Shown here: positions 2,176 through 34,624 of the stretch, one piece after another
How the letters are laid out: each line of letters begins with the position of its first letter
How positions within the stretch are numbered: the stretch's first letter is position 1
Assembly: GCA_903873905.1 (NCBI GenBank)
Contig: CAIQQJ010000131.1
Location: forward strand, 22,729-86,728
From: an uncultured Flavobacteriales bacterium
GTDB taxonomy: Bacteria; Bacteroidota; Bacteroidia; Palsa-965
Length of the DNA stretch: 64,000 nucleotides
Direction of reading: 5' to 3'
Made by a program: the position numbers and the translations under genes
Notes under the pieces: generated by a model
Database searches by the model: none
Seen by the model: the letters and a program-made list of their open reading frames with translations, nothing else
What the model was told of the DNA's origin: nothing

Positions 2176-2358
2176 CTTTTGTCATGTTTTTTCCTGTACC
2201 AAAGTAACACTCAAAGACACTCTCTTCTTATGATCACCGTCATATTTCACATTGAAAAATTTAGAATTCCAGATTAATTTTTAATCGATAAAAAATCCAG
2301 CTTTTCATGGGAGATTTTTTGGAAAAATTCATAAAATAGGCTGATTTTTCGATTGGAA

Positions 2359-3105: not shown

Positions 3106-3160
3106 GACAATCAGGTTCCCTCAATTTTTGACAGCAAAAAAAATGGCAAATAAATAATTA

Positions 3161-5536: not shown

Positions 5537-6841
5537 TTAAACTGTAGCACCTTCTTCTTGTGACATGATGATTTTTCTTTGTTCCAACATTTGGAAATAA
5601 GACTCCAAACGATTCTTGATATTCGCATAGGAGAAATAACGCGGATCAACAAGATCAGATTCTACGAATCCAACTGGCACACCTGAACGCTGTTCAATTT
5701 CTCGCATGATCATCAATTGACCTGCCGAGAATGAATTGCAACTCTTGATTGAATTGATCAAAAAACCATCTGCTTTATATTCTTTTACATAATCAGCCAA
5801 AAGATTTACACGTTGTGGAAGATTCAAATTCGTGTAACAGCCCATGCAATATTTTGCAAGACTCTCCAATGGTTGTTTTGGATCGTGACGGAATCCCATA
5901 TCATAAACTCCACCCACTTTTGTGTAAGATGATGCCACAATTACGGCGCCCATGTCATAAAATATTTTCCAGAATTCGCGGAAGTTGGTCCAGTTTGGAG
6001 GTCCTTCAACTACCAAACGGAATTTTTCTTCTTTGATTTCCCCTTCTGGCGTTACAGGGCCAAGACCGAGTCGCATTCTTTCCTGTACCTCTTTCCAAAG
6101 CTCTTCATAATAATCAACCGCTTCTTGTGTACCACGGAATGCGGTGAAAATTGGTCCGATATAATATACACCAGCGAAATAAGCATCGATTGGTGAAGGA
6201 ACATGTTTCGCACTTTCAAGAATTTTCACAAGAAGATCTTCAGCCTTCGCTGAATTTTCCATCATTTTGGAAAGACGAACCTGGTCATATTTTTTACCAG
6301 ATACCATTTCCATTTTCGGAATAACATCCTCGTTCATTTGCTTCACCATGTATTCTATTTGATCCGTTGTAATTTGTCCATCTTCCTGATAAGGAGTATG
6401 AAGCATTGCAACAGGAACACCTGGATACAACCGTTCAAGATTTTCAAACCATTTCAAGAATGTAAAACATCCTGTGTAACTCAACAGCAACAAATCTGGA
6501 GCTGGAAGTTTTTCACCTGTAGGTCCGACGTTGCCATTCAACATCATTCCGATATCACACTTTACATAAGTGCAAACATCTTCAGAGAATCCAATTTTTT
6601 CAGCATCCTTGATATAGGCCGCTGATTTTTTTCTCATACCTGATTGTAGTGCATTGATTTCTGGATATACGGGAAGCATATCGAATGAAAGAATCAATTC
6701 GGTAAGATTACCTGGTACAAAAGTATAAACCACTTTTTTTCCAAGTTCTTTCGCTTTACCTAAATCTTGAAATTGTTTTGCAAGCATGTCCTTCTGAAGG
6801 ACCATACTTTTTTCTTTTATTGCATCTTGCGGATTAGCCAT
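5537..6841 (-). CDS. benzoyl-CoA reductase / 2-hydroxyacyl-CoA dehydratase family subunit (BcrB/HgdA-B-like)
   Basis: 434-aa ORF with the overall profile of the HgdA/HgdB/BcrB/BcrC superfamily (conserved Cys-containing segments). A 20-nt gap to flanking genes implies an operon. Confidence 0.7.
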   Translation of the reverse strand: MANPQDAIKEKSMVLQKDMLAKQFQDLGKAKELGKKVVYTFVPGNLTELILSFDMLPVYPEINALQSGMRKKSAAYIKDAEKIGFSEDVCTYVKCDIGMMLNGNVGPTGEKLPAPDLLLLSYTGCFTFLKWFENLERLYPGVPVAMLHTPYQEDGQITTDQIEYMVKQMNEDVIPKMEMVSGKKYDQVRLSKMMENSAKAEDLLVKILESAKHVPSPIDAYFAGVYYIGPIFTAFRGTQEAVDYYEELWKEVQERMRLGLGPVTPEGEIKEEKFRLVVEGPPNWTNFREFWKIFYDMGAVIVASSYTKVGGVYDMGFRHDPKQPLESLAKYCMGCYTNLNLPQRVNLLADYVKEYKADGFLINSIKSCNSFSAGQLMIMREIEQRSGVPVGFVESDLVDPRYFSYANIKNRLESYFQMLEQRKIIMSQEEGATV

Positions 6842-6861: not shown

Positions 6862-8025
6862 TTAGGCCCAGAGTTTAATTGAATCAGAAAAAGTTCCGGC
6901 TTGTTCCTTGATGACTTTGAATTGTCCGGTATTTTCGTGGAATTGAAAATTGATGTGAGCAAGTCCTGCTGCATCACATTCTTTTTGCATTTCTGGACGA
7001 TCCAACAATGCTGGATCACAGAAACTAGCTGCGCAGAAAATCACTCCGTCGGCATTACACGCTTCTGCAAGTTTCACCAAACGTTTTCCTTTTGGATTGC
7101 CTACATCATAATAAGCCGATGAAAAAGTACTTTGATTAATGTAAGCCAAAGCCAATGTTTCAAGAGGATTAGCAGTTGTATCGTCAATATCGCCTTGAAT
7201 CCAACGTGAGCCAAGCATCAAGTCATCTTCAACGATATAGCAACCTGCCATTTCAATTGATTTTATCATTCCAATTGGCGGTTGTTCACAGAAAGAACCA
7301 GAAATCACAACACGGATATTATCCATCGGTTCTCCACGCTCTATACTGATTACATCAATAACTTGTTGTAGAATTTTATTGTGCTGCTCTACAGGAATTG
7401 CAAGTCCTGCACGAAGAACATAATACGTATCAACTGCAGATAATCTCCAAGGGAATTCCTGTCTGATTTTATAAATCGCTTCGATCAAACGACGGTTAAT
7501 ATTATAAAGTCCGATTGCTTTATTAATTGCATCAACCGTTACTTTCACACCATTGACTTTGAACATATCGTCAATGATTTTTTCCATTTCCTGTTTGTAA
7601 AAAGTTCCGCCAATTTTTGGATCAAAATTTTGCGGATAATCGAAATAGCGTTGGAAGTTCCCTTTTTTAGAAAGTTTGAACATGCCAGAAAGATTTCTAA
7701 CACAATCGCAAATTGCAGGGAAAAGAAAACCATCAAAATCATTCAGGTTTTTATCCAAAGCCATTTCTATGATGCCACGTGGGAGATGGCATATGTAGGA
7801 TTGATAATAGGCATCACCCTTAATGATTTGTTTTCGATCACCGGCTCCCATAATTCCAACCGGTAATGCCTTGGCGGCGTGCATAATTTCCCGTGGTACA
7901 TAGATTGGCAAATAACCAACAATCATACGATCAGGAGAATCAGCTTTCCATTTTTTTGCTACTTCAAAGTTCAGGTCAAAAGCAAGTGCTTCACATTCTT
8001 TCAGCAGCTGATCAAGCTTATCCAT
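6862..8025 (-). CDS. benzoyl-CoA reductase / 2-hydroxyacyl-CoA dehydratase family subunit (BcrC/BadD-like)
   Basis: 387-aa ORF, HgdB/BcrC-like. It is the first gene of the minus-strand operon; the length matches BcrC (about 386 aa). Confidence 0.7.
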   Translation of the reverse strand: MDKLDQLLKECEALAFDLNFEVAKKWKADSPDRMIVGYLPIYVPREIMHAAKALPVGIMGAGDRKQIIKGDAYYQSYICHLPRGIIEMALDKNLNDFDGFLFPAICDCVRNLSGMFKLSKKGNFQRYFDYPQNFDPKIGGTFYKQEMEKIIDDMFKVNGVKVTVDAINKAIGLYNINRRLIEAIYKIRQEFPWRLSAVDTYYVLRAGLAIPVEQHNKILQQVIDVISIERGEPMDNIRVVISGSFCEQPPIGMIKSIEMAGCYIVEDDLMLGSRWIQGDIDDTTANPLETLALAYINQSTFSSAYYDVGNPKGKRLVKLAEACNADGVIFCAASFCDPALLDRPEMQKECDAAGLAHINFQFHENTGQFKVIKEQAGTFSDSIKLWA

Positions 8026-8187
8026 TTTTCAGAGATATTAATTCCTTTTTATCCTTTTATGGTATCTTAAAATACCAAATTCCACTTTTTTGTGTAACAA
8101 AGTAATCTCCAAATGTCATGATCCACTATGACCTACATCATATTTTAATCATTTCGCTGAAATTAGGTTTACCACAGAAAAATTCAA

Positions 8188-8793
8188 ATGAAACAAGCTA
8201 CTAGTGCTGTGGTTCTTGCGGGTGGAAAATCGGAAAGAATGGGATGCCCAAAACCCTATTTGGACTTTCAGGGCAAGACCTTTATCGAAAAAATCATTGA
8301 AACCTATAAATTGGCGGATGTTGAAAATATTACTGTCGTTTTCAACAAAAACTACATACTTCCAATTTGGAAAAAGCTGTTGAACCATCTAAAATCTGAA
8401 GCAAGGATAATTGTCAACGATAATTCAACTGCTGGCAGATTTCATTCGCTCAAACTCGGATTGGACAACATCACTGAAACAGATTATTGTTTCATACAAA
8501 ATGTCGATAATCCGTTTGTCAGTCCGAGTTTAATAAATACCTTATATGAAAATAAAATCCCAGATGCCTACACTGTTCCTGTTCATGAAAATCATGGTGG
8601 GCATCCGATTCTTATTTCCAAATCAATCATCGATCATATTCGTAAAATTGAAAAATCAGAACTTACATTAAGGGAAATCCTTTCAAATTTCAAACGCAAT
8701 GAAGTGGTTGTAAACGATCCGTCTATTTTGTTCAATATTAATACACCAGAAGATTACAAAAAGTATTCTCTTAACAGCGGATTTTTTCTTTGA
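8188..8793 (+). CDS. molybdenum cofactor nucleotidyltransferase (MobA/MocA family; probably a cytidylyltransferase, given the XdhC and MOP-type enzyme nearby)
   Basis: 201-aa ORF. N-terminal LAGGKSERMG NTP-transferase motif typical of MobA/MocA. Confidence 0.7.
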   Translation: MKQATSAVVLAGGKSERMGCPKPYLDFQGKTFIEKIIETYKLADVENITVVFNKNYILPIWKKLLNHLKSEARIIVNDNSTAGRFHSLKLGLDNITETDYCFIQNVDNPFVSPSLINTLYENKIPDAYTVPVHENHGGHPILISKSIIDHIRKIEKSELTLREILSNFKRNEVVVNDPSILFNINTPEDYKKYSLNSGFFL

Positions 8794-8797
8794 AGCC

Positions 8798-9571
8798 ATG
8801 GAAAATATTTATGACGTGTTGTTGGAAATTCAAAAAGGCAGACGAAAGGCTGCTGTGTGCACCATAGTTCAAACAAAAGGATCTGCTCCCGCAAAAACTG
8901 GAAGCAAAATGATTGTTTATGAGGACAGCAAAATCTGGGGGACAATTGGTGGCGGAAGTCTTGAAAAAAAAGTAATTGAAAATGCAATTGCCGTGATGAC
9001 AAGTGGAAAACCAAATCTGTTTCGTCATGATTTATTGCATCAACATAACATGTGCTGTGGTGGCACCGTTGATATTTTTATTGAGCCAATTATGAAAAAA
9101 AACAAACTCTACATTTTTGGCGCGGGTCATACGGGAGTTGCGCTTGCTAAATTTGCACAACATTTCGGTTTTGAAATTGTCATTATTGATGATCGAAAAG
9201 AATATCTGGATGAAATAAAAATTCCAGAAGTAAATAAAATGAATCTTTCGCACCAAGAAGCCTTACGTGTTTTGCCTTTCGATGAACAGACTTATATCTG
9301 TATCATGACTTACAGTCATCCAATTGACAGGGAAATTTTGGCCTATTGTGTCAACAAGCCCTTCGCTTACCTTGGAATGATCGGAAGCGAACGGAAAGTT
9401 GAAATGACAAAAAAAATGTTCAGTGAAGGACTGAATATTTCCGAAGAAAAACTTTTTGCAATTGATATGCCAATGGGAATTGATATTCTTGCAGAAACTC
9501 CAGATGAAATTGCCATTAGCATTCTTTCAAAATTAATTTCAGTCAAAAATAAAGTCACACATGAAAAATAA
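8798..9571 (+). CDS. xdhC: XdhC/CoxI-family molybdenum cofactor insertion chaperone
   Basis: 257-aa ORF. XdhC_CoxI N-domain and a C-terminal Rossmann-like domain (IFGAGHTGVALAKFA). A 5-nt gap from the mocA-like gene. Confidence 0.75.
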   Translation: MENIYDVLLEIQKGRRKAAVCTIVQTKGSAPAKTGSKMIVYEDSKIWGTIGGGSLEKKVIENAIAVMTSGKPNLFRHDLLHQHNMCCGGTVDIFIEPIMKKNKLYIFGAGHTGVALAKFAQHFGFEIVIIDDRKEYLDEIKIPEVNKMNLSHQEALRVLPFDEQTYICIMTYSHPIDREILAYCVNKPFAYLGMIGSERKVEMTKKMFSEGLNISEEKLFAIDMPMGIDILAETPDEIAISILSKLISVKNKVTHEK

Positions 9572-10298
9572 AATCGCATTAGTAACAGGAGCATCAAAGG
9601 GAATTGGAAAAGCCATTGTAGAAAGATTGGTGAATGAAAATTATTTTGTGCTCGCCATTGATATTGACAAGGAAAATGGAGAACGTCTGCAAAATGAAAT
9701 GGGCAATGATAAAATCCGTTTTATTTCAGTTGACATTTGCGACGAAAATAAAACAACCGAATTATTCAAAACCATTTCTTCAGAATATGGACAGCTTGAT
9801 GTTCTTGTCAATAATGCAGGAATCATAAAAGACAACATGATCTGGAAAATGCCTGTGGAAGATTTTGATGCTGTGATCAATGTAAATCTCAAAGGAACTT
9901 GGTTGATGTGCAGAGAAGCTGCGAAAATGATGAAAAATCAGAATAGCGGAAGAATTGTAAACATTGCATCACGCGCGTGGTTGGGCAATCGCGGGCAAAG
10001 TAATTATTCCGCATCCAAAGCTGGCGTAATTGGTCTTACACGTGTGCTTGCGCTTGAATTGGGGAAATATAATGTTTGCGTAAACGCAGTCGCACCAGGA
10101 TTAATTGACACGCCACTTTCGCAAAAATTGGAAAAGGATGTTTTACAAAAACTGATTGACGCACAACCAACAAGAACAATGGGAAAACCTGAGGATGTTG
10201 CCAACGCAGTCGCATTTCTCGCATCAGAAAAAACCCAATTCATTACCGGCCAAACCATTTATGTTGATGGCGGTAAAAGTATAGGTGCGGGGAATTAA
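9561..10298 (+). CDS. short-chain dehydrogenase/reductase, 3-oxoacyl-ACP reductase (FabG)-like
   Basis: 245-aa ORF. TGASKGIGKAI cofactor motif, NNAG, YSASKAG catalytic motif. Overlaps the xdhC stop by 11 nt. Confidence 0.85.
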   Translation: MKNKIALVTGASKGIGKAIVERLVNENYFVLAIDIDKENGERLQNEMGNDKIRFISVDICDENKTTELFKTISSEYGQLDVLVNNAGIIKDNMIWKMPVEDFDAVINVNLKGTWLMCREAAKMMKNQNSGRIVNIASRAWLGNRGQSNYSASKAGVIGLTRVLALELGKYNVCVNAVAPGLIDTPLSQKLEKDVLQKLIDAQPTRTMGKPEDVANAVAFLASEKTQFITGQTIYVDGGKSIGAGN

Positions 10299-12142
10299 TC
10301 TATTACAATTGGAATAGGAACCTGAATATTGCGGATCATATCCTCCAGTCGTTCCAAATCTTTTCCAAATGAGCCAAGTGCATTTTCAGAAAACAATTTC
10401 ATTTCTGGAATAATATTTTTGTAATACTCTACGCCTTTCAAGAGATTCTCCTTGAACGAATCGAAATACCTCGTTTGTTTCGCTGAAATATTTTCGATGT
10501 GCATATTGATTTCTGCCAGAAAATAATCCACATAAAGAACAAGCTCATTCACAAATAAATTTGGCCTGTTCAATTGGTTTAGAATATTCACTTTTCCATA
10601 AATATGATCCACCATTTCCTTCAGTGAAAAAACACCCGAGAAATATGCCAGATTTGGACCAGGACAAATGCTCACAGCAGTTAGGCTATGGGAGAGTGGA
10701 AGATTGTCTTTTATCAATGTAGAAGCGCCAAGACCTTCGCACAAACATTCCTTCTCTGTAATGAAGTTAAATTGTTTTTCAAATTCCTCTTCAGAAAGTT
10801 TTTGCTCTTTTAGCTGATTGATTTTTTTTGCTTGATATTCTCTTGATGCGGTGCAAATAGGATCAGTGGTGAATTCCGTATTGAACCCAAGAAACTTCTT
10901 GTAACACGGGCTTCCTGGTCTTCCTGCATCTATTCTTGCATTGCGTTGAAGAATGGAAGTGCTTCCTGCAAAATTATTGATTGGAATTCCAAGTGGCGAC
11001 GCATGACTAAGAAAATAATCCTCTTTTTTTGCTTTCACCAATTGATCGAGCGTTCCTTCATCCACATTCGTAGCTTCAGGCACGAGCAAAAATGGACTTC
11101 CCCAACCGCAACCATCTAATTCAAAATATTCGCGTAGGAAACAATCTTCAATTGCCGTTCCAATTCCACCTTGCACCGTGATTTTTGTTTTCAACGGCGA
11201 GCCAAAATTATTTTTGGATTTTTGTTTCAATGCTTCATTACACATCATCCACAATTCCTTCTCCAATTCACTTTTTCTGGATTTGAATTCATCCAAAATC
11301 GGACCAAGCAAAAGTCCTTCTGTGGCAAATGCATGCCCACCACAATTCAATCCTGATTCAATTCTATATTCTGAAATCCACAATCCTTTTTTCGCAAGAA
11401 TTTTCCCTTGAATAAAAGCAGATCTGAAATCACTTACTTTAAGAATTATTTTCTTCTTCAAGTTTCCATTTGCATCAGGCAAAAAATCATCAAATGATTC
11501 GCAATAGGCATAAAGCCTAGGATTCATTCCCGCTGAGAAAACAACAGAAGACGACAAGGTGCTTTGCGCAAATCCACGCAAGGCTGCCATTGCATCCGCA
11601 TATTCAGGTGGAAGAACTTCACCATCATCATCATAATTATTGCGGTCGCATTTTGTCATGATATTAACATCAATATCACCGGCTTTAATCTCTTTCCGCA
11701 ATTGCTGTTGCATAGCAGTTTTCTCGACCCCTTCAGTCAACAACATTTTCTCGTACAACATTTTTACACGAGAACTGCTTGGCAACATTTCAAAATATTT
11801 AACAATGTCTGTTCCTGCTTCAAATTTTTCCAATCTGAGCGCCTCAATTTGTCTCGATAAGATCCTGTCCAATAAATTCAGGTAAGAAGTAATTCGTTTA
11901 GCACGGTGATCAACATCGCTGGTTTCAATTGGGATAAAAGCATCTACTTCTTTTTCATAATAATACTTCCGCACCTTCTCCACCAAATGATCTTCAATGA
12001 TCGAAACAACAGATGAAATTCCATATTTCCCGACTTTAACCGGCGTGTCAATGGTATATCCCAAACCCATCACTGGAATATGGAACGTATGTAGTCCTGA
12101 ATTTGACATTATAGTTTCTTTTTTAGGGGAATGAAACAGCAC
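10295..12142 (-). CDS. hypothetical protein, possibly a large TIM-barrel flavin-type oxidoreductase (family not resolved)
   Basis: 615-aa uninterrupted ORF. Motifs GLNCGGHAF and QGGIGTAIED are reminiscent of FMN TIM-barrel enzymes (NPD/enoyl-reductase/glutamate-synthase-like), but no confident family match. An alternative start at MSNSGL (12109) is possible. Confidence 0.5.
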   Translation of the reverse strand: MLFHSPKKETIMSNSGLHTFHIPVMGLGYTIDTPVKVGKYGISSVVSIIEDHLVEKVRKYYYEKEVDAFIPIETSDVDHRAKRITSYLNLLDRILSRQIEALRLEKFEAGTDIVKYFEMLPSSSRVKMLYEKMLLTEGVEKTAMQQQLRKEIKAGDIDVNIMTKCDRNNYDDDGEVLPPEYADAMAALRGFAQSTLSSSVVFSAGMNPRLYAYCESFDDFLPDANGNLKKKIILKVSDFRSAFIQGKILAKKGLWISEYRIESGLNCGGHAFATEGLLLGPILDEFKSRKSELEKELWMMCNEALKQKSKNNFGSPLKTKITVQGGIGTAIEDCFLREYFELDGCGWGSPFLLVPEATNVDEGTLDQLVKAKKEDYFLSHASPLGIPINNFAGSTSILQRNARIDAGRPGSPCYKKFLGFNTEFTTDPICTASREYQAKKINQLKEQKLSEEEFEKQFNFITEKECLCEGLGASTLIKDNLPLSHSLTAVSICPGPNLAYFSGVFSLKEMVDHIYGKVNILNQLNRPNLFVNELVLYVDYFLAEINMHIENISAKQTRYFDSFKENLLKGVEYYKNIIPEMKLFSENALGSFGKDLERLEDMIRNIQVPIPIVID

Positions 12143-12294
12143 AAAATACCATCCACTCCAATGTCAGCTAAGGTCGTTATATATGTTAGCGAGAGATATG
12201 ATATAAATCATGTTTGCTGCTCCTAAATATTGTGAAATTTGAGAAAAAGATACCTCTAAAATTTGAATTTTTGAAGCGGTTCGAAAAAAAATAA

Positions 12295-13539
12295 GTGAAA
12301 GAAAAAACCAAAGTAGAATTACTTGCCCCATGTGGATCATTTGAATCGCTTTCAGCAGCTGTGAAAGTCGGGGCGAATGCTGTTTATTTTGGAATTGAAC
12401 AGTTGAATATGCGCACCCGTTCATCGAACAATTTTGAGATGAAAGATCTTGCAGCGATCAGTAAAATTTGCAAAGAACATCAGGTAAAATCATATCTCAC
12501 ACTCAACACCATTCTCTACAATCACGACATCAATCTGATGAAAAGAATTGTGGATGAAGCAAAGGCAAATAATATTGATGCGATCATCGCTTCAGATCAT
12601 GCGGTTTTCAACTATGCGAAGAAAGTTGGAATTCCATTGCACATTTCCACTCAGGCAAACATTACGAATATCGATACGGTTGAATTTTATTCTACGTATG
12701 CAGATGTAATGGTCATGTCGCGTGAACTGACACTTGATCAGGTTTCGGAAATCACAGAAGAAATAAAAAAGAGAAATGTTCGCGGGCCTTCTGGAGAATT
12801 GGTTCGTGTTGAAATTTTTGCACATGGAGCTTTGTGCATGGCCGTTTCCGGAAAATGCTACATGAGTTTGCATTCCGATTTTGCTTCTGCCAATCGTGGT
12901 GCTTGTGTTCAAAATTGCAGAAGAAGTTATATCGTTACCGACAAAGAATCGGGAACTGAATTTGAAATTCAGAACGAATATATCATGTCAGCGAAAGATC
13001 TTTGTACGATCAGTTTCATTGACAAAATTGTCAATGCAGGAGTTTCTGTTTTGAAAATTGAAGGACGAGCACGTGGTGAAGAATATGTTCACACCGTTAC
13101 CAAATGTTATCACGAAGCAATTGATTCGCTTTCTGATGGAACTTATTCTCCAGCAAAAATTGAAGGTTGGACAAAAGAACTTTCCACTGTATTTAATCGC
13201 GGATTCTGGGATGGTTATTACCTCGGAAGAAAAATGGGAGAATGGAATGATGAATATGGTTCCAAGGCAACAAAAAAGAAAATCTATATTGGAAAAGGCA
13301 TAAAATATTTTGAGAAAATTGGAATTGGTGAATTCAAAATTGAAAGTCAATCCTTGGAAGTTGGCGATGAAATAATGATTTCAGGACCTACAACAGGAAT
13401 CATTCAGACAGCCATAACAGAAATGAGAATCAATGATGTGAAAAGTGAAATTGCAAAACGTGGTGAAACCATTTCCATTCCTATCAACGTTAAAATTCGT
13501 GCTTCCGATAAATTATACAAGATGAAAAGTACAGTATGA
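12295..13539 (+). CDS. peptidase U32-family protein (PrtC/RlhA/TrhP/UbiU-like; probably an Fe-S, O2-independent hydroxylase-type enzyme)
   Basis: 414-aa ORF. U32 N-terminal TIM-barrel region (ELLAPCGSFESLSAAVKVGANAVYFG) and conserved Cys (CMAVSGKCYMS...CVQNCRRSY). Confidence 0.8.
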   Translation: MKEKTKVELLAPCGSFESLSAAVKVGANAVYFGIEQLNMRTRSSNNFEMKDLAAISKICKEHQVKSYLTLNTILYNHDINLMKRIVDEAKANNIDAIIASDHAVFNYAKKVGIPLHISTQANITNIDTVEFYSTYADVMVMSRELTLDQVSEITEEIKKRNVRGPSGELVRVEIFAHGALCMAVSGKCYMSLHSDFASANRGACVQNCRRSYIVTDKESGTEFEIQNEYIMSAKDLCTISFIDKIVNAGVSVLKIEGRARGEEYVHTVTKCYHEAIDSLSDGTYSPAKIEGWTKELSTVFNRGFWDGYYLGRKMGEWNDEYGSKATKKKIYIGKGIKYFEKIGIGEFKIESQSLEVGDEIMISGPTTGIIQTAITEMRINDVKSEIAKRGETISIPINVKIRASDKLYKMKSTV

Positions 13540-13766
13540 TTCGGATTTTTCATCAGCGCAAAAAATGCATTGGTTGTAATGCATGTGTGGAAGTAAATAA
13601 ATCAAGATGGAGAATATCACGTTTGGATGGGAAATCAACTTTGATTGAAGGAATAGAAAAAAAAGGAATTTACATGGCAACTGTTTTTGATGATGAATGG
13701 GAAGCCAATGAACTCGCAGCGAAAAATTGTCCAGTAAAAATCATCCGATTGGAAAAAATAGTATGA
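13536..13766 (+). CDS. small ferredoxin (single-cluster Fe-S protein)
   Basis: 76-aa ORF. CIGCNACVE ... NCP motif (CxxCxxC...CP). Start overlaps the U32 stop (ATGA). Stop overlaps the likely start of the downstream Mo enzyme. Confidence 0.6.
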   Translation: MIRIFHQRKKCIGCNACVEVNKSRWRISRLDGKSTLIEGIEKKGIYMATVFDDEWEANELAAKNCPVKIIRLEKIV

Positions 13767-16561
13767 AACAAATCAACATTAAAATCAACGGAAAAAATTT
13801 CGACCTTCTCGTTGAGGAACACGAAATGCTTTCAAATGTCATTCGTGAAAAGGTTGGCCTTACAGGTACAAAAGTCGGTTGTGAGCAAGGAAGTTGTGGA
13901 GCTTGTACTGTTCTCGTTAACAAGGAACCTGTGCTCAGTTGCATCACTCCTGCTTTGCGTTATGATGGTGCTGAAATTACAACTATCGAAGGCGTTTCCA
14001 AAAATGGAGAACTGCATCGCTTGCAGGAAAAATTTGTGGAGAAAGGTGCGATTCAGTGTGGATTTTGTACTCCAGGAATGATCATCACTTCATTGGATTT
14101 TTTAAGCAAGAATCCGAATCCTACAAAACATGAAATAAAGGAAGCGTTATCAGGAAATGTTTGTCGTTGCACTGGATATAAAAAGATTGTGGAAGCGGTT
14201 GCTGAATACGCCGAAGAAAAGAATTCAGGCAAAATCATCAAAAGAAAAAAAGAAAAAGAAACAGGAACTGTTGGAGTTGGCCGACCATACATTGAGGCAA
14301 CAAAAAAAGTTCAGGGAATTGCTGATTATGCAGACGACTATCAATTCAAAGATGTTTTGCATGTAAAATTTGTAAAAAGTATTTATCCACATGCTCGCAT
14401 TGTAAGTATTGACACTTCTGAAGCTTTGGCAATGGAAGGCGTTCGATATATTGCCACAGGAAAAGAATTGCCAATCACTTTTGGAGTATTGCCTCTTTCA
14501 CAAGATGAAACGGCAATGGCCATTGAAAAAACAAGATATGCTGGAGAAATTGTTGCGGCTGTTGCAGCAGATTCAGAAGAAATTGCAGCACATGCATGCA
14601 AACACATCAAGGTTGTTTACGAACCGCTTAAAGCATTCCTTACCATTGACGATTCCTTGAATGACATTGGTACAGCAGAAAAAATTCACGACACAACAAA
14701 ATTCAATAACAACATTCACAAGAAAGCGGAATTACGCTTTGGTGATCAGCAACAAGGATTGAAAGAAGCTGAAGTTGCATTAAAAATGGATTTTGAAATG
14801 ATTGGCATCAATCATGGTTTTACAGAGCCGCACGCGTCCACAGCATTTTGGGATGAGAATGGTTTGACCATGATTTCTGCAACACAAGTAACACACTACC
14901 TCCATCGCGCACTTGCAAAAACAATGGAAGTTCCATTGAGCAGAGTACGCGTAATCAAACCTGTTCTCGGTGGTGGTTTCGGTGGAAAAAGCGATCCTTT
15001 CGCGCATGAAATTATTGTCGCGCACATTGCAAGAAAAACTGGAAAACCAGTGAAAGTTCGATTGACGCGGGAAGAAGTATTCTTGAACAACCATGGTCGT
15101 CACCCAACAAAAATGACTATCCAATTAGGCGCAAGTAAAGATGGATTTTTGAAAGTGCTTGATGCCGATGTTGCAATTGATGGTGGTGCATACGGAAGTT
15201 TTGGAGTGGTTACATCCTATTACAATGGCGTATTGCTTCAAGCTCCCTACAAGCTGAATAATTTCGGTTTTAAAACCTATCGTGTTTATACCAACAAACC
15301 ACAATGTGGTGCCATGCGCGGACATGGTGCAGTGAATACAAGATTTGCAGTTGAATCGATGATCGATGAAATTGCACATCAAATAAAAATTGATCCTGTC
15401 GAGATGCGAATGAAAAATTTTCTCGATCCGAATTCATTGACAGTTGGTCATTACCGCATCACTTCGAATGGAAGCAGAGAAGCAATTCAAAGAGTGGCAG
15501 AACAATCCGATTGGAAAAACAAACATGGTAAAATGCCGCAAGGTCATGGCTATGGAGTTGCTTGCGGATTTTTCATTAGTGGAAGTGCATTGCCGATCGT
15601 ATGGAATGAATTGCCGCAATCAGTAGTGCATTTGAAAGTTGATTTTGATGGAAGAGTTTTAATTGCTTCTGGCGCGAATGATATTGGACAAGGCAGCGAT
15701 ACCATGCTTGCCATTATTGTTGCAGAGGTACTTGGAATTAGCATGGACAAAACATTTGTAATCGCTGCAGATACATTGATCACACCTGTTGATTTGGGAA
15801 GCTATTCCAGTCGCGTAACATTTATGGCTGGTAATGCAGCAAAAGATGCAGCTGAAAATCTCAAAAAAGAAATTGCAAACTCCATTTCTGTAAAGAAAAA
15901 TATTCCTGTAGAAGAATTGATTTTTTCTGAGAATAGAATTTTCAGCAATGATAAATCGGTCGATCTAAGTTGGGATCAAGCCATTGAAATTTTGACAGCA
16001 AATCGTGGTGCAGTGAATGTGAGTGGAAAATATATTTCTCCAAAATTGGGTGGTGATTTCAAAGGAGCTGGAGCAGGATTAAGTCCATCTTATTCTTTCA
16101 GTTCTTGTGTCGCAGAAGTGAAAGTGGATACAGAAACAGGACATGTGAAAATCATCAATGTTTGGGGTGCTCACGATTGTGGAAAAGCACTAAATCCATT
16201 GGCAGTTGAAGGACAATTGGAAGGCTCTTGGCACATGGGAATCGGGCAAGTGATGACGGAAGAAATGTCATATTACAATGGATTATTGATCAACAATAAT
16301 TTCTTGGATTATAAAATTCCGACAAGTTTGGATACTCCTCCCATTCACACCAACATCATCGAGACGATTGATCCGGAAGGTCCTTTTGGTGCGAAAGAAA
16401 CAGGAGAAGGTGCCATTCATGCAGTATTGCCAGCCATCGCAAATGCAGTCTATGATGCAGTTGGAATTCGAATCACAAAACTTCCAATCAAATCAGAGGA
16501 TGTTTTGAGATTATTGAAAGAAAAAGAAAAAATAAATTCCACTTCAAAAGCTAGTTTATAA
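13763..16561 (+). CDS. xanthine dehydrogenase-family molybdoenzyme with fused N-terminal 2x[2Fe-2S] domain (aldehyde oxidoreductase MOP-like; probably a molybdopterin cytosine dinucleotide (MCD) enzyme)
   Basis: About 930-aa ORF. The ORF track start is 13727; the likely start is MKQINIKINGKNF at 13763. 2Fe-2S motifs CEQGSCGACTV, QCGFCTPGM, CRCTGY. Long aldehyde-oxidase/XDH a/b hammerhead and Mo-binding domains (GGGFGGK, etc.). Architecture as in D. gigas MOP. Confidence 0.85.
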   Translation: MKQINIKINGKNFDLLVEEHEMLSNVIREKVGLTGTKVGCEQGSCGACTVLVNKEPVLSCITPALRYDGAEITTIEGVSKNGELHRLQEKFVEKGAIQCGFCTPGMIITSLDFLSKNPNPTKHEIKEALSGNVCRCTGYKKIVEAVAEYAEEKNSGKIIKRKKEKETGTVGVGRPYIEATKKVQGIADYADDYQFKDVLHVKFVKSIYPHARIVSIDTSEALAMEGVRYIATGKELPITFGVLPLSQDETAMAIEKTRYAGEIVAAVAADSEEIAAHACKHIKVVYEPLKAFLTIDDSLNDIGTAEKIHDTTKFNNNIHKKAELRFGDQQQGLKEAEVALKMDFEMIGINHGFTEPHASTAFWDENGLTMISATQVTHYLHRALAKTMEVPLSRVRVIKPVLGGGFGGKSDPFAHEIIVAHIARKTGKPVKVRLTREEVFLNNHGRHPTKMTIQLGASKDGFLKVLDADVAIDGGAYGSFGVVTSYYNGVLLQAPYKLNNFGFKTYRVYTNKPQCGAMRGHGAVNTRFAVESMIDEIAHQIKIDPVEMRMKNFLDPNSLTVGHYRITSNGSREAIQRVAEQSDWKNKHGKMPQGHGYGVACGFFISGSALPIVWNELPQSVVHLKVDFDGRVLIASGANDIGQGSDTMLAIIVAEVLGISMDKTFVIAADTLITPVDLGSYSSRVTFMAGNAAKDAAENLKKEIANSISVKKNIPVEELIFSENRIFSNDKSVDLSWDQAIEILTANRGAVNVSGKYISPKLGGDFKGAGAGLSPSYSFSSCVAEVKVDTETGHVKIINVWGAHDCGKALNPLAVEGQLEGSWHMGIGQVMTEEMSYYNGLLINNNFLDYKIPTSLDTPPIHTNIIETIDPEGPFGAKETGEGAIHAVLPAIANAVYDAVGIRITKLPIKSEDVLRLLKEKEKINSTSKASL

Positions 16562-17496
16562 TGGTTTCCGAAAAAATTTATGTAAAACCAAAATCTGTTG
16601 AGCAAGCTATAAAAATAGCGAGTCAATACCTTGGTTCATTTCGATACCTCGCAGGTGGAACCGATGTGATCGTGAATAAATATCAGGGAAATGAAGAAGC
16701 GAATTGTTTGATCGATATCACGGAGATCGAAGAATTGAAAAAAGTTTCCATCGATGGTGATTATTTGAAAATTGGATCATTGATAAAATTAGACGATCTG
16801 AAAAAACACGAATCCATTGTCAAATACATTCCCACATTAATTCAAGCGGCTCACGAAGTGGCTTCACCCATATTACGCAAAACGGCTACTATCGGTGGAA
16901 ATATTTTGTGTGAAAACAGATGTTCCTTTTACAATCAAAGTGAATGGTGGAGAGAAGCTGTAGGATATTGTTTGAAATGTGATGGGGAAATCTGCATTGC
17001 AACTGGCGGTAAGAAAAATTGTTTTTCAAAATTTGTTTCCGACACAGCACCTGTGCTCATCGCTTTGAATGCAAGGCTCGAAATTATCGATACCAATGGG
17101 GAATCTACCATTGCGCTTGAAGATATTTATTCAGGCGACGGGATGAATCCAAGAAAGCTAAGTGCAACAGCGTTGATCCGAAATATTCAGATTCCCATTG
17201 GTGAAAAACAGATTTGCATTTTCAAAAAACTCCGTCCACGTGAAGCGGTTGATTTTACATCGCTCACGACAGCTGTTTCACAAAGTGAAATTGGAAGAGT
17301 AAGAATTGTTCTCGGCGGAGTGGATCCTAAACCAATTGTTGTAGAGGGAAAAACAACAGATGATAAAAATGCATTGATCACTTCTGCTGTAAAAAAAGCT
17401 AGAATTGTCGACAATGATGTTTATTCACGTCAATACAGAAAAGAAATGATTTCGGTTTACCTACAAAGAAGTTTCGATGAATTGAAATGGGAATAG
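16561..17496 (+). CDS. FAD-binding subunit of a xanthine dehydrogenase-family enzyme (CoxM/HcrB-like) with a Cys-rich insertion
   Basis: 311-aa ORF. YLAGGTDV and TIGGN FAD-domain motifs. Start overlaps the Mo-subunit stop (ATGG/TAATGG). Six-Cys insert at residues 117-154. Confidence 0.8.
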   Translation: MVSEKIYVKPKSVEQAIKIASQYLGSFRYLAGGTDVIVNKYQGNEEANCLIDITEIEELKKVSIDGDYLKIGSLIKLDDLKKHESIVKYIPTLIQAAHEVASPILRKTATIGGNILCENRCSFYNQSEWWREAVGYCLKCDGEICIATGGKKNCFSKFVSDTAPVLIALNARLEIIDTNGESTIALEDIYSGDGMNPRKLSATALIRNIQIPIGEKQICIFKKLRPREAVDFTSLTTAVSQSEIGRVRIVLGGVDPKPIVVEGKTTDDKNALITSAVKKARIVDNDVYSRQYRKEMISVYLQRSFDELKWE

Positions 17497-17600
17497 TGGT
17501 ATTCCAAATCATAAGACAAGATTGCCTTTGACACAGGTTGCTATTTAACACAACTATATAAATTAATAATAACCATTATATTTTTCTCACACCAATTATC

Positions 17601-18134
17601 ATGAATGACTCAATCAAACTTTTGACCGATGAACATGTTGTAATTTCTACAGCTTGTGAAATTTCAGACCGAATTGCCAAGCTAATTGGGAAAAAGGACA
17701 GTGAATATGAAGATGTTGCTCGCCAATTACTTTCCTTTTTCAGGGAATATGGAGATGCCTACCACCATTTTAAGGAGGAGAAAATATTGTTCCCCGAAAT
17801 GAACAAGAAAAACGAAATGATTGCTGACGGAATCATCAAGGAAATGTTGGAAAATCATGAGGATTTTCGGGAGTTGCTAAGAGGAGTTGAAGATTTCCTG
17901 AATAAAAAAGATTATTTAAGAGCACAACAGCAATTCCACATTTACAAGGAAGTCCTCTTGGATCACATTGCAGTTGAAAATGATGAAGTGTTTCACGTTG
18001 CAGATGCACTCTTTTCTCCAACTGAAAATGAAAATATAAATTTCAGATTTGCCGATTGTGACAATGAACTCGGATTGGAAAAGAAAAAAAATCTTGCTTT
18101 ATTAATTCAAAATTTGGACAATTCGGTGAAATAG
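17601..18134 (+). CDS. hemerythrin-like (HHE cation-binding) domain protein
   Basis: 177-aa ORF. H/E residues spaced as hemerythrin motifs (LTDEHVVI, HHFKEEKILFPEM, HIAVENDEVF). Confidence 0.65.
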   Translation: MNDSIKLLTDEHVVISTACEISDRIAKLIGKKDSEYEDVARQLLSFFREYGDAYHHFKEEKILFPEMNKKNEMIADGIIKEMLENHEDFRELLRGVEDFLNKKDYLRAQQQFHIYKEVLLDHIAVENDEVFHVADALFSPTENENINFRFADCDNELGLEKKKNLALLIQNLDNSVK

Positions 18135-18157
18135 ACTTTTGGGGATATTTTGAAAAT

Positions 18158-18589
18158 ATGGAATCGGCAATTTCTTCGTTTATTAATTCACAAACCAATC
18201 TCACGTATTGCACGTGCATTGGAGATGTTCCACATTGTGCAAATTGTTTTTTTGCTTGGAATGAAGAATTGAATGCACTTATTTTTAAGTCTGACAACAC
18301 CACAAGACACATTCAAGAAGCACTGAAAAACAACCATGTCGCAGGAACCATTCTTCCTGATAAATTGGAAAAAGGAAAAATAAAGGGAATTCAATTTTCG
18401 GGAACCTTCCTAATTCCTACAGCTGAAAACCTAAACATCGCTAAAGAAAGTTATTACAATAAATACCCCTTTGCAAGAGTAATCCCAGGAGAAATCTGGG
18501 CAATTCTCCTCGAAGAAATAAAAATGACAGACAACACACTTGGGTTTGGGAAAAAACTTTTGTGGGAACGAAAAAAAGAAAAATTATGA
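18158..18589 (+). CDS. hypothetical protein, possibly of the pyridoxamine 5'-phosphate oxidase-like FMN-binding family
   Basis: 143-aa ORF. Weak resemblance to the PNPOx split-barrel fold. Stop overlaps the start of the downstream lyase (ATGA). Confidence 0.35.
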   Translation: MESAISSFINSQTNLTYCTCIGDVPHCANCFFAWNEELNALIFKSDNTTRHIQEALKNNHVAGTILPDKLEKGKIKGIQFSGTFLIPTAENLNIAKESYYNKYPFARVIPGEIWAILLEEIKMTDNTLGFGKKLLWERKKEKL

Positions 18590-19968
18590 AAGACTTCAAA
18601 ACAATCATCGAACCATTCAGAATTAAAATGGTTGAACCTTTCCGTTTAACGACAGAAAAAGAAAGAACAAATTATATTAAGGATGCGCACTTCAATCCAT
18701 TCCTGCTTCATTCCGAAACGGTAATGATTGACTTCCTAACGGACAGTGGAACCTCAGCAATGAGCTCTGATCAATGGGCTGGAATTATGTTGGGCGATGA
18801 ATCTTACGCCGGCTCAAAAAGTTGGTTGAAAATGGAAAAAGTAATTCGCAATCTCACCGGATTGCAATACGTTTTTCCAACACACCAAGGAAGAGCGGCC
18901 GAAAGTATTTTATATACTTACCTCGGTGGAAAAGGAAAAGTATTTATCAGCAATACACATTTTGACACCACACGTGCGAACATTGAATTTTCAGGAGCAA
19001 CAGCAATTGATATTCCATCGCCTGATGCAAAAAATCCAGAAGATTATTTTCCTTTCAAAGGGAATATGGATGTGGAGAAACTGGAACAGTTGCTAAAGAA
19101 ATATCCTGCGGAAAAAATCGGCGGTGTAATTCTTACTGTTACCAATAATAGTGGCGGAGGACAACCGGTAAGCATGAAAAATGCGCGTGACGTAAGTAGA
19201 ATTTGCAAAAAACACAAAGTGAATTTCTTTCTTGATTGTTGCAGGATTGCTGAGAATGCCTACTTCATTCAACAGCGTGAAAAGGGATATGAAAAAGTAT
19301 CCTACAAAAAAATTGCACAAGAAATGTTTGCCTTGACAGATGGCGCAGTCATGAGTGCAAAAAAAGATGCGTTGGTAAATATGGGAGGATTCCTTGCATT
19401 GAAAAACAAAGAACTCGCTGAAGCTTGCAAAAATCTTTTGATCATCACAGAAGGTTTCACAACTTACGGTGGACTTTCTGGAAGAGACATGGAAGCAATT
19501 GCCATTGGCCTTGAAGAAGTTTTTGATGCAGATTATTTGGAATACAGAATTAGCAGCACCACTTTTCTCGGAGAGCATTTAAGAAAAATTGGAGTTCCTC
19601 TCATTTGGCCAATTGGTGGTCACGCCGTTTATATTGATGCCAAAGAATTTTACAAACATATTCCTGTCCACGAATATCCAGGACAAGCACTTGCCGTTGA
19701 ACTCTACATCAAGGGAGGAATTCGCACAGTGGAAATTGGTTCGGTTATGTTCGGGAAATATGACAAAAAAGGCAAGCTCATTCCAGCGCCGAAAGAATTA
19801 GTTAGGTTGGCTATTCCAAGAAGAGCTTATACACAAAGTCATATTGAATATGTCATTGAGGTTTTTGAAAAACTAATTGCAAATAAGGAAAATGTAAAAG
19901 GATTTAAAATAACAGAAGAACCCAAATTCCTACGACATTTCACCAGCAAATTTGCGCGTGTGAAATAA
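18586..19968 (+). CDS. beta-eliminating lyase, tyrosine phenol-lyase / tryptophanase family (PLP-dependent)
   Basis: About 461 aa from MKDFKTIIEPFRIKMVEPF (the ORF track starts 8 codons earlier). End-to-end similarity to TnaA/TPL. Several blocks (DSGTSAMSSDQWAG, GGLSGRDMEAIAIGL, GGHAVYIDA) look closer to tyrosine phenol-lyase than to E. coli tryptophanase. Confidence 0.85.
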   Translation: MKDFKTIIEPFRIKMVEPFRLTTEKERTNYIKDAHFNPFLLHSETVMIDFLTDSGTSAMSSDQWAGIMLGDESYAGSKSWLKMEKVIRNLTGLQYVFPTHQGRAAESILYTYLGGKGKVFISNTHFDTTRANIEFSGATAIDIPSPDAKNPEDYFPFKGNMDVEKLEQLLKKYPAEKIGGVILTVTNNSGGGQPVSMKNARDVSRICKKHKVNFFLDCCRIAENAYFIQQREKGYEKVSYKKIAQEMFALTDGAVMSAKKDALVNMGGFLALKNKELAEACKNLLIITEGFTTYGGLSGRDMEAIAIGLEEVFDADYLEYRISSTTFLGEHLRKIGVPLIWPIGGHAVYIDAKEFYKHIPVHEYPGQALAVELYIKGGIRTVEIGSVMFGKYDKKGKLIPAPKELVRLAIPRRAYTQSHIEYVIEVFEKLIANKENVKGFKITEEPKFLRHFTSKFARVK

Positions 19969-19987
19969 AAATAAGTGGCATATTAAT

Positions 19988-20034
19988 AAGAAACCCGAAG
20001 ATTTTTTTCTTCGGGTTTCTTATTATTTTTTTTC
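19988..20034. terminator. bidirectional rho-independent terminator between the convergent lyase and cytochrome c genes
   Basis: AAGAAACCCGAAG-loop-CTTCGGGTTTCTT stem, followed by a T-run (and an A-run on the other side). Confidence 0.75.
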
Positions 20035-20038
20035 TCAA

Positions 20039-20731
20039 TTAAATCCCTTTGGGACATAAACCCAACACTTCCTTTTTATTCCAAGAAGAACACCCAGGGA
20101 ACTTGCTGCATGTTGCGTAAATATCGCAGCTACTTTTTACGCGACTTACTTTCTTGTAGGTAGCTGCAGGAGTAAGATCAAATTTTATCCCTTGCTGTTT
20201 CAAAATGCGTTTCGCATTCCAAACTGAATACGCCACCACTACAATGAAAACAGAAAAAAATATGTACAAGTACAGCAATGGATTTTCAAAAAGCATTGCG
20301 TGTGTTTTGGGCGTGTTTGATTGGGCAATTACAGGAGGAACAGCAAGTTTTGCTTTTTCCTTTTCTGCTGCCACGGCAAGACCTGTATTGGTAATGTAGC
20401 TAAACACTGCTTTCATTTCAGGTTCCGTAAGTTTCTGATCCGGCATTGGAATTTTGAATTGATCAAACAATGCTTTTGCATCTGCATCCCCGCTTGCAAT
20501 GAAAGTGGTAGAACTTTTCACCCATTTCAAAAGCCATGCTTCAGGTCGTTTTGTTGTTACTCCTGAAAGATCTGGCCCGACCAAGCGACCTTTTCCTATT
20601 GTGTGGCAGGATCCACAATTATTTTTGAAAGTGGCTTCACCATCCTGAGCAATACCTGAAAACGGAAAAAGAAACAATAAAGCGATCACAAATGCAACAA
20701 CGTTTTTAGTCAACTTTTTTGAAAAACTCAT
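20039..20731 (-). CDS. membrane-anchored mono-heme c-type cytochrome
   Basis: 230-aa ORF. Signal peptide. CGSCH heme-binding motif. A C-terminal TM helix and a Cys-rich tail. Confidence 0.7.
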   Translation of the reverse strand: MSFSKKLTKNVVAFVIALLFLFPFSGIAQDGEATFKNNCGSCHTIGKGRLVGPDLSGVTTKRPEAWLLKWVKSSTTFIASGDADAKALFDQFKIPMPDQKLTEPEMKAVFSYITNTGLAVAAEKEKAKLAVPPVIAQSNTPKTHAMLFENPLLYLYIFFSVFIVVVAYSVWNAKRILKQQGIKFDLTPAATYKKVSRVKSSCDIYATCSKFPGCSSWNKKEVLGLCPKGI

Positions 20732-20851
20732 TTTGTTTTTTTTTGAATTGTTTTTGGAAAAACTTGAATTTATTTTTTGTGAATCTTAATTATCACCCTA
20801 ACAAATTTCAAAATATGATTTATATCAAACAATGATTCGCCTCATGCTTTT

Positions 20852-20865
20852 ATGATTTAAATCAT
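20852..20865. promoter_or_regulatory. FNR/Crp-type box ATGATTTAAATCAT (TGAT-N4-ATCA core)
   Basis: Perfect 14-bp palindrome, 127 bp upstream of the minus-strand cytochrome c start and 320 bp upstream of the narK-like gene. Confidence 0.6.
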
Positions 20866-21186
20866 TTTCTAAGCTTTACTTGCCCTTGTAAGCCCTACTA
20901 ACGTTAGCATTTCCGTTTCACAGGAAAATCAAAAAAACATTCGAATTCATTTTTTCATATTTGACAAAATAAAAATGTCCCGTTTGGTATAATTGTTTCA
21001 TCCTATCTGATGTTTTTTTCCAAAAAATGGAATTGAAAAAATCTTTGAATTGGATATCAAAACAAAAACAAATTCACAAATTTCATTTTGTTCAAAATTC
21101 CTTTTCGTTTAAAAACACAACATGCCTTCTGTCATACTTTTTCTAGCTTAGGCTTATAGCTTTGTCCTATCATTCAACTCAGCACT

Positions 21187-22671: not shown

Positions 22672-22759
22672 AATAATGGATTTTTTACCTGCAATTTTCA
22701 AGTAGAAAATCTAAAAACCCAAAACAATTTTCGAATTTTCAAAACATGACCATGGTCAC

Positions 22760-22771
22760 TGATTTAAATCA
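22760..22771. promoter_or_regulatory. FNR/Crp-type box TGATTTAAATCA
   Basis: Same palindrome as at 20852 and 33222. Lies in the intergenic region between the narK-like gene and the FeS-subunit gene. Confidence 0.55.
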
Positions 22772-23000
22772 TATTTATGGATAATTCGCGTCATTTATTA
22801 AAAACCCAAAGTGTGTCATTTTTGAATTGACATAAACGTTGATTACGTCAATAAAAAAGCCAATTCTAGTCCGTTTTTCAAAACTTGTCATTGATTATAA
22901 TTTTTACACAGTTTGACAATCTTTGAGTTTTCTGGCCTCCGTTCTTTCAATCCATCATCCTATAAGTAAATTCACCTTTTCCACTCCAAAAGCTTTCCAC

Positions 23001-23090: not shown

Positions 23091-23229
23091 GATGCCGCTC
23101 AAGTGAAAATCCAATCAAAACTCTACAGTCTTTAACAAATCGAATTCAATATTTACGCTCATTAATTATCGCAATTCCATCACCGCATAAAATCAATAAC
23201 GTTTCTACCGAAAAGTAATATTTCTAATT

Positions 23230-34618: not shown

Positions 34619-34624
34619 GCATAA

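Follow-up and report, generated by a model that had tools for sequence, protein, structure and literature searches.

The closest described counterparts of the system considered here are the 4-hydroxybenzoyl-CoA reductases (4-HBCR) of Thauera aromatica (HcrCAB; structures 1RM6 and 1SB3) and Rhodopseudomonas palustris (HbaBCD), both of which consist of three separate subunits. To our knowledge, 4-HBCR is the only structurally characterised xanthine oxidase-family enzyme that operates with an 'inverted electron flow'. In Thauera, this enzyme works in combination with a benzoyl-CoA reductase (BCR) and a 2-oxoacid:ferredoxin oxidoreductase, the latter being a 2-oxoglutarate:ferredoxin oxidoreductase. 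Other enzymes of relevance for a comparison are the aldehyde-oxidising MOP of Desulfovibrio gigas (1SIJ/1VLB), a molybdopterin cytosine dinucleotide (MCD) enzyme without FAD subunit, in which N-terminal 2x[2Fe-2S] and C-terminal molybdenum (Mo) domains form a single polypeptide, and the periplasmic, oxidative PaoABC of Escherichia coli (5G5G), made of three separate subunits, whose FAD subunit PaoB carries a [4Fe-4S] cluster in an insert (PMC3958847). Moreover, the Ucd/Uxd urolithin dehydroxylases of gut Enterocloster are xanthine oxidase-family enzymes that reductively remove phenolic hydroxyls, with a 4Fe-4S-binding domain in UxdC (PMC12658268, PMC12771579). Here we analyse a stretch of 64,000 nucleotides (the window; G+C ~37%) from contig CAIQQJ010000131.1 (assembly GCA_903873905.1) of an uncultured Flavobacteriales bacterium from freshwater, and in particular two of its genes, called hcrCA and hcrB below, which code for a fused iron-sulfur::molybdenum (FeS::Mo) protein and for a separate FAD subunit. 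We consider it probable, though well short of certain, that this locus encodes a fused 4-HBCR-like reductase, and that it belongs to a genomic island of uncultured Bacteroidota for the anaerobic benzoyl-CoA pathway.

The fused, HcrC::HcrA-like protein (13763-16561, + strand) is 932 aa long and not 930 aa, as given in a preliminary description of the locus that had otherwise correctly recognised the joining of a 2x[2Fe-2S] N-terminus to the Mo domains. From the N-terminus onwards it is composed of a 2x[2Fe-2S] module of ~150 aa, a Lys-rich linker, an a/b-hammerhead and two Mo-cofactor-binding domains (Pfam Fer2, Fer2_2, Ald_Xan_dh_C, MoCoBD_1 and MoCoBD_2), and its start codon is the ATG at 13763 rather than an upstream TTG, in agreement with the N-termini of the orthologues. 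The features that it has in common with HcrCAB and HbaBCD include both [2Fe-2S] sites, represented by eight cysteines (C40/45/48/60 and C99/102/134/136), and the catalytic Glu, E882, which lies in an ETGEG motif and aligns with Glu726 of 1RM6_A. When compared with the PDB, the Mo protein finds its best match in 1RM6_A, the alpha subunit of 4-HBCR (595 bits; 40% identity over 763 residues by BLASTP), with MOP (1SIJ) next at 344 bits, mammalian xanthine dehydrogenase (XDH) and aldehyde oxidase at ~270-280 bits (XDH ~279) and PaoC at 191 bits, while the gamma module matches 1RM6_C with 150 bits. Likewise, the best NCBIfam model of the fused protein is that of 4-HBCR alpha (TIGR03194, 805 bits), followed by XdhA (538 bits). 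In addition, 17 of 18 positions that separate the non-Bacteroidota members of the 4-HBCR-like clade from 75 other representatives are kept in the window protein, as is a clade-specific loop (approximately residues 448-460 of 1RM6_A). Inspection by eye reveals no signal peptide in the fused sequence.

In the preliminary description the protein had been taken for a MOP-type enzyme. An alternative along these lines would have the locus encode either an aldehyde oxidoreductase of the MOP type or a purine/xanthine dehydrogenase of the ordinary kind, working in the oxidative direction with the FAD protein as electron outlet, and it draws on the FeS::Mo single polypeptide, shared with MOP, and on the 486-538 bits obtained with the XdhA and selenium-dependent XDH models. 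However, besides the far lower PDB score of MOP, the NCBIfam aldehyde oxidoreductase model NF045668 yields just 489 bits, with its cut-off at 1100, and the XdhA score remains below the corresponding cut-off of 780. Moreover, MOP has no FAD subunit, whereas in the window the FAD gene overlaps the stop codon of the Mo gene, and the position of Glu802 of bovine XDH (GGGFGGKE motif) is occupied in our alignment by Ser in the window protein and by Thr in Thauera. Together with the position in the tree and a benzoyl-CoA pathway context instead of purine catabolism, both described below, these observations make an oxidative enzyme of the MOP or XDH type highly improbable.

The FAD subunit points in the direction of 4-HBCR as well. 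This protein of 311 aa (16561-17496, + strand; FAD_binding_5), whose best NCBIfam model is TIGR03195, shows a FAD_binding_5 match stretched over residues 7-212 against 168 profile positions, which indicates an insert of ~40 residues, and this insert can be aligned with the Cys-rich loop of HcrB residue by residue. Specifically, the cysteines aligned to C122, C138, C146 and C155 of 1RM6_B, reportedly the ligands of the [4Fe-4S] cluster (Unciuleac et al. 2004), are invariant in 21 of 21 Bacteroidota sequences, that is, in the window protein and 20 orthologues. Among PDB entries, 1RM6_B is matched with 141 bits (31% identity), PaoB with 66 bits and the CoxM/CutM proteins with ~24-40 bits. As far as sequence can tell, the subunit is HcrB-like, with a predicted extra [4Fe-4S] site, and not CoxM-like as originally suggested. 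A further Cys in the same region (motif LKC, residues ~115-160) is invariant in all Bacteroidota orthologues and is replaced by Tyr in HcrB of Thauera.

When 1.84 billion cluster representatives were searched exhaustively with HMMER, 6386 matches were obtained at E <= 1e-30, the closest of which are P0241 (fused, 57% identity), P0242 (fused, 50%) and P0243 (unfused, 50%). In a tree of 99 Mo domains (738 columns, 100 bootstraps), the Bacteroidota sequences form a clade with a bootstrap of 100, which is joined by P0241 (100) and by the unfused P0243 and P0245 (98), and is enclosed in a 4-HBCR-like clade containing 1RM6_A (79-86). Moreover, the 4-HBCR alpha model is the best one for each of P0241-P0249 (773-960 bits). 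A clustering with purine or aldehyde hydroxylases, combined with a FAD subunit devoid of extra clusters, had been indicated beforehand as the outcome that would speak against the description; instead, the Mo part groups elsewhere and the FAD subunit does have an extra cluster site. Judged by these comparisons, the Mo enzyme is a distinct branch of predicted 4-HBCR-like proteins, all three modules of which score below the respective equivalog cut-offs.

The combination of a FeS::Mo fusion with a stand-alone FAD subunit following it, and with adjacent maturation genes of MCD type, holds up, but it is not the rarity that it had been thought to be. In fact, the fusion is present in 66 of the 150 nearest representatives of 50%-identity clusters and in 6 of 17 4-HBCR-like representatives, where it is interspersed among unfused forms, and it also occurs in metagenome-assembled genomes (MAGs) labelled Ignavibacteriales, Kiritimatiellia and Acidobacteriota. 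The same architecture is known from the NCBIfam pair TIGR03313/TIGR03312, of the E. coli XdhD/YgfM type, to which the window proteins score well below the cut-offs (364 bits against 1102 for TIGR03313; 66 against 242 for TIGR03312, a short model of 257 positions). No new enzyme class is revealed: the locus would represent an uncharacterised fused variant of 4-HBCR-like enzymes, and close relatives, some fused forms included, have already been named 4-HBCR alpha subunit by public annotation pipelines. More than 120 protein clusters share 74-94% identity with the window protein, and the MAGs with related loci originate, judging by their record names, from lakes, from groundwater and from a peatland (palsa) site. 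Two loci from Omnitrophota and Planctomycetales MAGs (L022 and L023; 40% identity) were considered as relatives of the fused type and discarded, as they are unfused FAD-FeS-Mo operons with FAD subunits of 283-284 aa, too short for the insert of ~40 aa.

The genes next to the enzyme link it to benzoyl-CoA metabolism. Upstream of the maturation genes, and divergent to the first of them (mocA), lie bcrC (6862-8025), bcrB (5537-6841) and bcrA (4099-5517), all on the - strand, while bcrD (186-1025, - strand) is found three genes beyond bcrA. The models for BcrB (TIGR02260, 686 bits, cut-off 487), BcrC (TIGR02263, 449 bits, cut-off 421) and BcrD (TIGR02261, 317 bits, cut-off 313) are passed, and for the ATPase subunit BcrA (PF01869) the best model is TIGR02259, with 447 bits under a cut-off of 578; the other ATPase subunit is BcrD. 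By these matches, bcrCBA and bcrD are predicted to encode a class I benzoyl-CoA reductase of the Thauera type. In the window, bcrA and bcrD are split by a saccharopine dehydrogenase-like gene and two lipid-type acyltransferase genes (1030-4024, - strand), and bcrD directly adjoins bcrA in loci L009, L011, L013 and L017.

A survey of the neighbourhoods of 24 GTDB loci, with four further look-ups, brought to light a recurring unit in which bcrCBA(D) faces mocA-xdhC-SDR-hcrCA-hcrB-hemerythrin (SDR, short-chain dehydrogenase). BCR genes are adjacent to the hcr genes in 12 lineages, bcrC being syntenic in 12 loci, and BCR or Had/Oah genes in at least 13. The genes to the left of the window could be read from a matching contig of an uncultured Bacteroidota MAG (JAPLDD010000046.1, GCA_026391895.1; L033), which at 12002-20840 codes for an AMP-forming ligase, an ADP-forming acyl-CoA synthetase, a thiolase and Had, the last with 324 bits on a fragment of 265 aa. 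The AMP-forming ligase was evaluated as a benzoate- or 4-hydroxybenzoate-CoA ligase and set aside, its best matches being generic fatty-acid, oxalate and o-succinylbenzoate ligases. The same contig also contains a second HGD-D with ApbA and an activase, and ApbA::BcrAD fusions occur in L028 and in the P0099 locus. In L028, the gene of an orthologue with 76% identity adjoins Had (462 bits, cut-off 339), Oah (584 bits, cut-off 464) and a Dch-like hydratase.

A second recurring neighbour is a pyruvate:ferredoxin oxidoreductase (PFOR), a single polypeptide (TIGR02176, 1728 bits in L025) encoded in six lineages. Its gene is located behind hcrB or behind the hemerythrin gene in L003 (15337-18861), L004 (15661-19161), L009 (13828-17349), L013 (14278-17802) and L025-27 (14272-17799 in L025), and lies close by in L007 (6-3353); in the 64-kb window no PFOR was found. 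The hcr loci of these relatives differ from Thauera in the type of neighbouring oxidoreductase, and we take the Bacteroidota loci to repeat the Thauera combination. In summary of the comparison with HcrCAB and HbaBCD, the window shares a beta loop of ~40 aa with four Cys, adjacent MCD-type maturation genes and a class I BCR neighbour; it differs from them by having gamma and alpha in one open reading frame (ORF), and from HcrCAB by the extra invariant loop Cys, conserved hemerythrin and SDR partners, and the Bacteroidota phylum.

Whereas domain content, conserved cluster ligands, catalytic Glu, phylogenetic placement and gene neighbourhoods are read directly from the data, we infer the substrate, the catalytic direction and the electron donor. 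In particular, a gamma module with 2x[2Fe-2S] and an alpha module whose Mo cofactor is probably in the cytosine dinucleotide form would act within one 932-aa protein, while the beta subunit would bind FAD and the extra [4Fe-4S] cluster. By analogy with Thauera, electrons would travel 'backwards' for this family, from a reduced low-potential ferredoxin to the [4Fe-4S] cluster, then to FAD, to the two [2Fe-2S] clusters and finally to Mo, where an aromatic acyl-CoA (most likely 4-hydroxybenzoyl-CoA) would lose its para-hydroxyl as water and so yield benzoyl-CoA. Following this step, the ATP-dependent class I enzyme BcrCBAD would dearomatise the ring, and Had, Oah, the Dch-like hydratase and the thiolase would open and degrade it. 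An electron input at low potential via ferredoxin had been anticipated by the preliminary description; it is plausible, given the known 4-HBCR logic and the PFOR genes beside the enzyme in six lineages, and the intuition of an unusual FAD subunit with low-potential input is right in so far as this is the known design of 4-HBCR. The part of that proposal which does not stand is the dedicated nature of the ferredoxin, discussed below.

Several observations weigh against such an assignment. All three modules fall short of the equivalog cut-offs (805 bits against 994.55 for alpha, 220 against 404.55 for beta and 177 against 257.8 for gamma), and the identity to the characterised enzyme is just 40% for alpha and 31% for beta, so that identity of substrate with 4-HBCR is not assured. 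The neighbouring CoA ligase is of a generic type, and two lineages, P0086 and L012/L029, have no BCR within 10 kb of the enzyme genes. The test with signature residues, which stood in for a comparison of substrate channels, is partly circular, and the tree was built by neighbour-joining only. A [4Fe-4S] loop in the FAD subunit is also present in the oxidative PaoABC, and the loop alone is therefore no proof of reductive catalysis. Furthermore, no ORF for a 2x[4Fe-4S] ferredoxin of the Thauera type (CxxCxxCxxxCP, <200 aa) was found in the window and five related loci.

These same scores, identities, BCR-less lineages and generic ligase are what can be advanced for a different interpretation, namely that the chemistry is the same and the substrate another. 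The enzyme would then be a paralogue of HcrA, a ferredoxin-driven reductive dehydroxylase of another phenolic CoA ester, of a non-CoA phenolic or of an N-oxide. Of the ten closest representatives scanned, P0256 of the Thauera cluster alone passes TIGR03194 (1302 bits), and dehydroxylases of the xanthine oxidase family that act on non-CoA substrates do exist, as exemplified by the urolithin dehydroxylases (PMC12771579, PMC12658268). The latter enzymes, going by their descriptions, are set apart from the window system by their free polyphenol substrates in place of CoA esters, by another subunit layout and by the lack of a benzoyl-CoA context. On the other hand, the adjacency of BCR or Had/Oah in at least 13 lineages and the 17 of 18 signature positions held in common with the Thauera-containing clade, also by the P0086 protein from a lineage without nearby BCR, argue against a different substrate, to which we assign a modest chance of being correct.

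The P0086 lineage (L025-L027, 4527-8458; more than 130 contigs) deserves separate mention, as mocA-xdhC-hcrCA-hcrB-hemerythrin-PFOR is directly preceded there by a pair of genes for NarK nitrate/nitrite transporters together with those for a Crp/Fnr regulator and MoaA. In loci of this type the substrate to be reduced could be a small N-oxide or an oxyanion. In a broader form of the same idea, the fused enzyme would not be a 4-HBCR at all, but a PFOR/ferredoxin-driven 'reverse' reductase of the xanthine oxidase family that acts on another oxygen-bearing substrate and is served by a dedicated hemerythrin, which we hold to be rather unlikely. A nitrate/nitrite link based on the NarK neighbours was examined and dropped: only one lineage has NarK next to the cluster and the window shows such a proximity only weakly, in contrast to the general adjacency of BCR and PFOR.

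Returning to the 4-HBCR-like reading, the donor ferredoxin needs a closer look, because a 76-aa ferredoxin (13536-13766, + strand; Fer4_15) is encoded immediately upstream of hcrCA. It is preceded by a U32-family protein, a TrhP/UbiU-like Fe-S protein (12295-13539, + strand; PF01136, 219 bits), with the motif C181-x6-C188-x15-C204-x3-C208 and with scores of 194 bits for TrhP (cut-off 534) and 161 bits for UbiU (cut-off 440). The ferredoxin reads CIGCNAC...NCP, a CxxCxxC...CP pattern that indicates one cluster of the [4Fe-4S] type. The preliminary description had seen the U32, ferredoxin, Mo and FAD genes as coupled through ATGA overlaps. The three stop/start overlaps are real; as read from the sequence, the U32/ferredoxin and ferredoxin/Mo junctions are indeed ATGA, and the Mo/FAD junction is TAATG, an overlap of 1 nt. 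It is on this arrangement of four co-oriented genes that one may build the proposal of a single unit, with a ferredoxin dedicated to supplying the Mo enzyme with electrons and a U32 protein acting as an associated anaerobic hydroxylase, all the more so as 6 lineages have the U32-ferredoxin pair directly upstream of hcrCA and no other small ferredoxin is encoded nearby.

The distribution of the pair, however, tells against a single unit. Most hcr loci are without it and have other genes in its slot, for instance DUF302-like or outer membrane-like ones; conversely, U32 with a 75-76-aa Fer4_15 ferredoxin and overlapping codons is found with no nearby hcr genes in Arcticibacter (L031, 5001-6469) and in another complete Bacteroidota genome (L032, 5001-6466). 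Moreover, U32 orthologues with 68-70% identity are present in Arcticibacter and Flavobacteriales and are widespread in the phylum, the ferredoxin gene is always accompanied by U32 in the surveyed loci, and the gap between ferredoxin and hcrCA varies in relatives from 2 to ~430 nt. In E. coli, the U32 tRNA hydroxylase YegQ/TrhP depends on the ferredoxin YfhL. Since the pair exists without hcr genes, the 76-aa ferredoxin belongs with U32; it tracks the U32 gene and not the Mo enzyme, so the earlier idea of a dedicated small ferredoxin does not stand. A dedication of the ferredoxin to the Mo enzyme is improbable, the U32 protein is probably a separate housekeeping module, and the tight coupling of ferredoxin and hcrCA is specific to the window genome. 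We accordingly regard the single-unit proposal as quite improbable. A possibility is that the 76-aa ferredoxin, with no other small ferredoxin at hand, may also feed the reductases.

On the left side of the U32 gene, the maturation genes are found on one strand, as had been described. The first encodes a MocA-like nucleotidyltransferase (NTP transferase; 8188-8793, + strand; PF12804), which scores 114 bits with MocA/YgfJ, 119 with the DVU_1551 family, a match that counts among the resemblances to MOP, and 57-63 with the MobA models, all below cut-off. Given these scores and its position upstream of hcrCA in most related loci, its likely product is the Mo cofactor in the cytosine dinucleotide form. 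It is followed by an XdhC-family Mo-cofactor insertion chaperone (8798-9571, + strand; PF02625 and PF13478; NCBIfam XdhC_rel_AOR 211 bits, TIGR02964 146 bits), syntenic in many related loci, and MocA and XdhC together would mature the cofactor. The xdhC gene overlaps by 11 nt with that of a FabG-like SDR (9561-10298, + strand; adh_short_C2, 219 bits), which in 14 related loci is likewise placed after xdhC and before hcrCA.

Downstream of hcrB, a hemerythrin-domain protein (17601-18134, + strand; PF01814, 56.7 bits) with weak RIC/YtfE similarity is encoded, and a hemerythrin gene likewise follows hcrB directly in most lineages, namely in L005, L006, L010, L012-L015, L019, L020, L025-L029 and the P0099 locus. 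While the parts played by the SDR and the hemerythrin are assigned by inference, the latter is possibly an O2/NO sensor or a partner that protects or repairs the Fe-S clusters of the reductase, and the conserved hemerythrin and PFOR neighbours would together hint at the way in which the enzyme obtains its electrons and its protection.

Between the SDR and the U32 gene, an ORF of 604/615 aa lies on the opposite strand (10295-12142, - strand), so that the maturation genes and the genes from U32 to FAD constitute two separate transcription units. Scans of 8000-18700 for sigma-70 promoters (34 matches against 31.8 in shuffled sequence) and for intrinsic terminators (9 against 7.6) gave no excess, and the Bacteroidetes -7 motif TAnnTTTG was not found in the three intergenic regions checked; the scans being uninformative, transcription units were judged from gene orientation only. 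For the product of the minus-strand ORF, neither Pfam and NCBIfam nor the PDB yields a sequence match. This protein was considered as a member of the system and rejected, since it is a phylum-wide protein whose copy in Runella rosea has neither U32 nor hcr genes within 6 kb. It has thousands of homologues in Bacteroidota, R. rosea among them, and its AlphaFold model (predicted local distance difference test, pLDDT, 85.9) matches in Foldseek (E = 4e-9) the FMN TIM barrel that is typical of FabX, PfaD, FabK and 2-nitropropane dioxygenase. On the basis of this model, it looks like an unannotated enzyme family distributed across the phylum and not specific to hcr loci.

If the 4-HBCR-like assignment is correct, many uncultured Bacteroidota would remove phenolic hydroxyls and dearomatise benzoyl-CoA without oxygen. 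Genomes of such Bacteroidota are usually read as those of polymer and sugar degraders, and in the literature searched we found no description of an anaerobic aromatic-ring degradation pathway, or of a fused 4-HBCR-like system, in this phylum. Such capacities would add a sink for lignin- and amino acid-derived phenolics to models of carbon cycling in anoxic freshwater and peat, and a large group of uncultured Bacteroidota of freshwater, groundwater and permafrost may carry a complete ATP-dependent pathway for anaerobic aromatic-ring degradation. Moreover, the locus would offer a naturally fused gamma-alpha version of an enzyme with 'inverted electron flow' from the xanthine oxidase family.

As to the rest of the window, a stretch at 20039-28051 begins with a cytochrome c (Pfam), followed by a NarK-like transporter of the major facilitator superfamily and, from 23230 onward, by an Fe-S/NrfD-like membrane complex, judged by eye from the translations. 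Further on, at 33668-42292, Pfam matches identify a RIC/ScdA-hemerythrin protein, a DUF2249 protein, two COX1-family (NO reductase-like) proteins and three Crp/Fnr regulators. The NarK-like, NO reductase-like, RIC/ScdA and Crp/Fnr genes are consistent with a facultative anaerobe that would use an ATP-dependent class I reductase, and beyond these anaerobic or denitrification-style genes the remainder of the window consists of housekeeping genes. Finally, the cluster is followed by genes for a YhbP-like protein and a beta-eliminating lyase (18158-19968, + strand), which are also present in L006, L007 and L012. With 673 bits, the lyase exceeds the cut-off (285) of PRK13238, a model for the tryptophanase subfamily, and it passes no equivalog model, so that tryptophanase and tyrosine phenol-lyase are indistinguishable in this case; in the event of a tyrosine phenol-lyase, the enzyme would release phenol.

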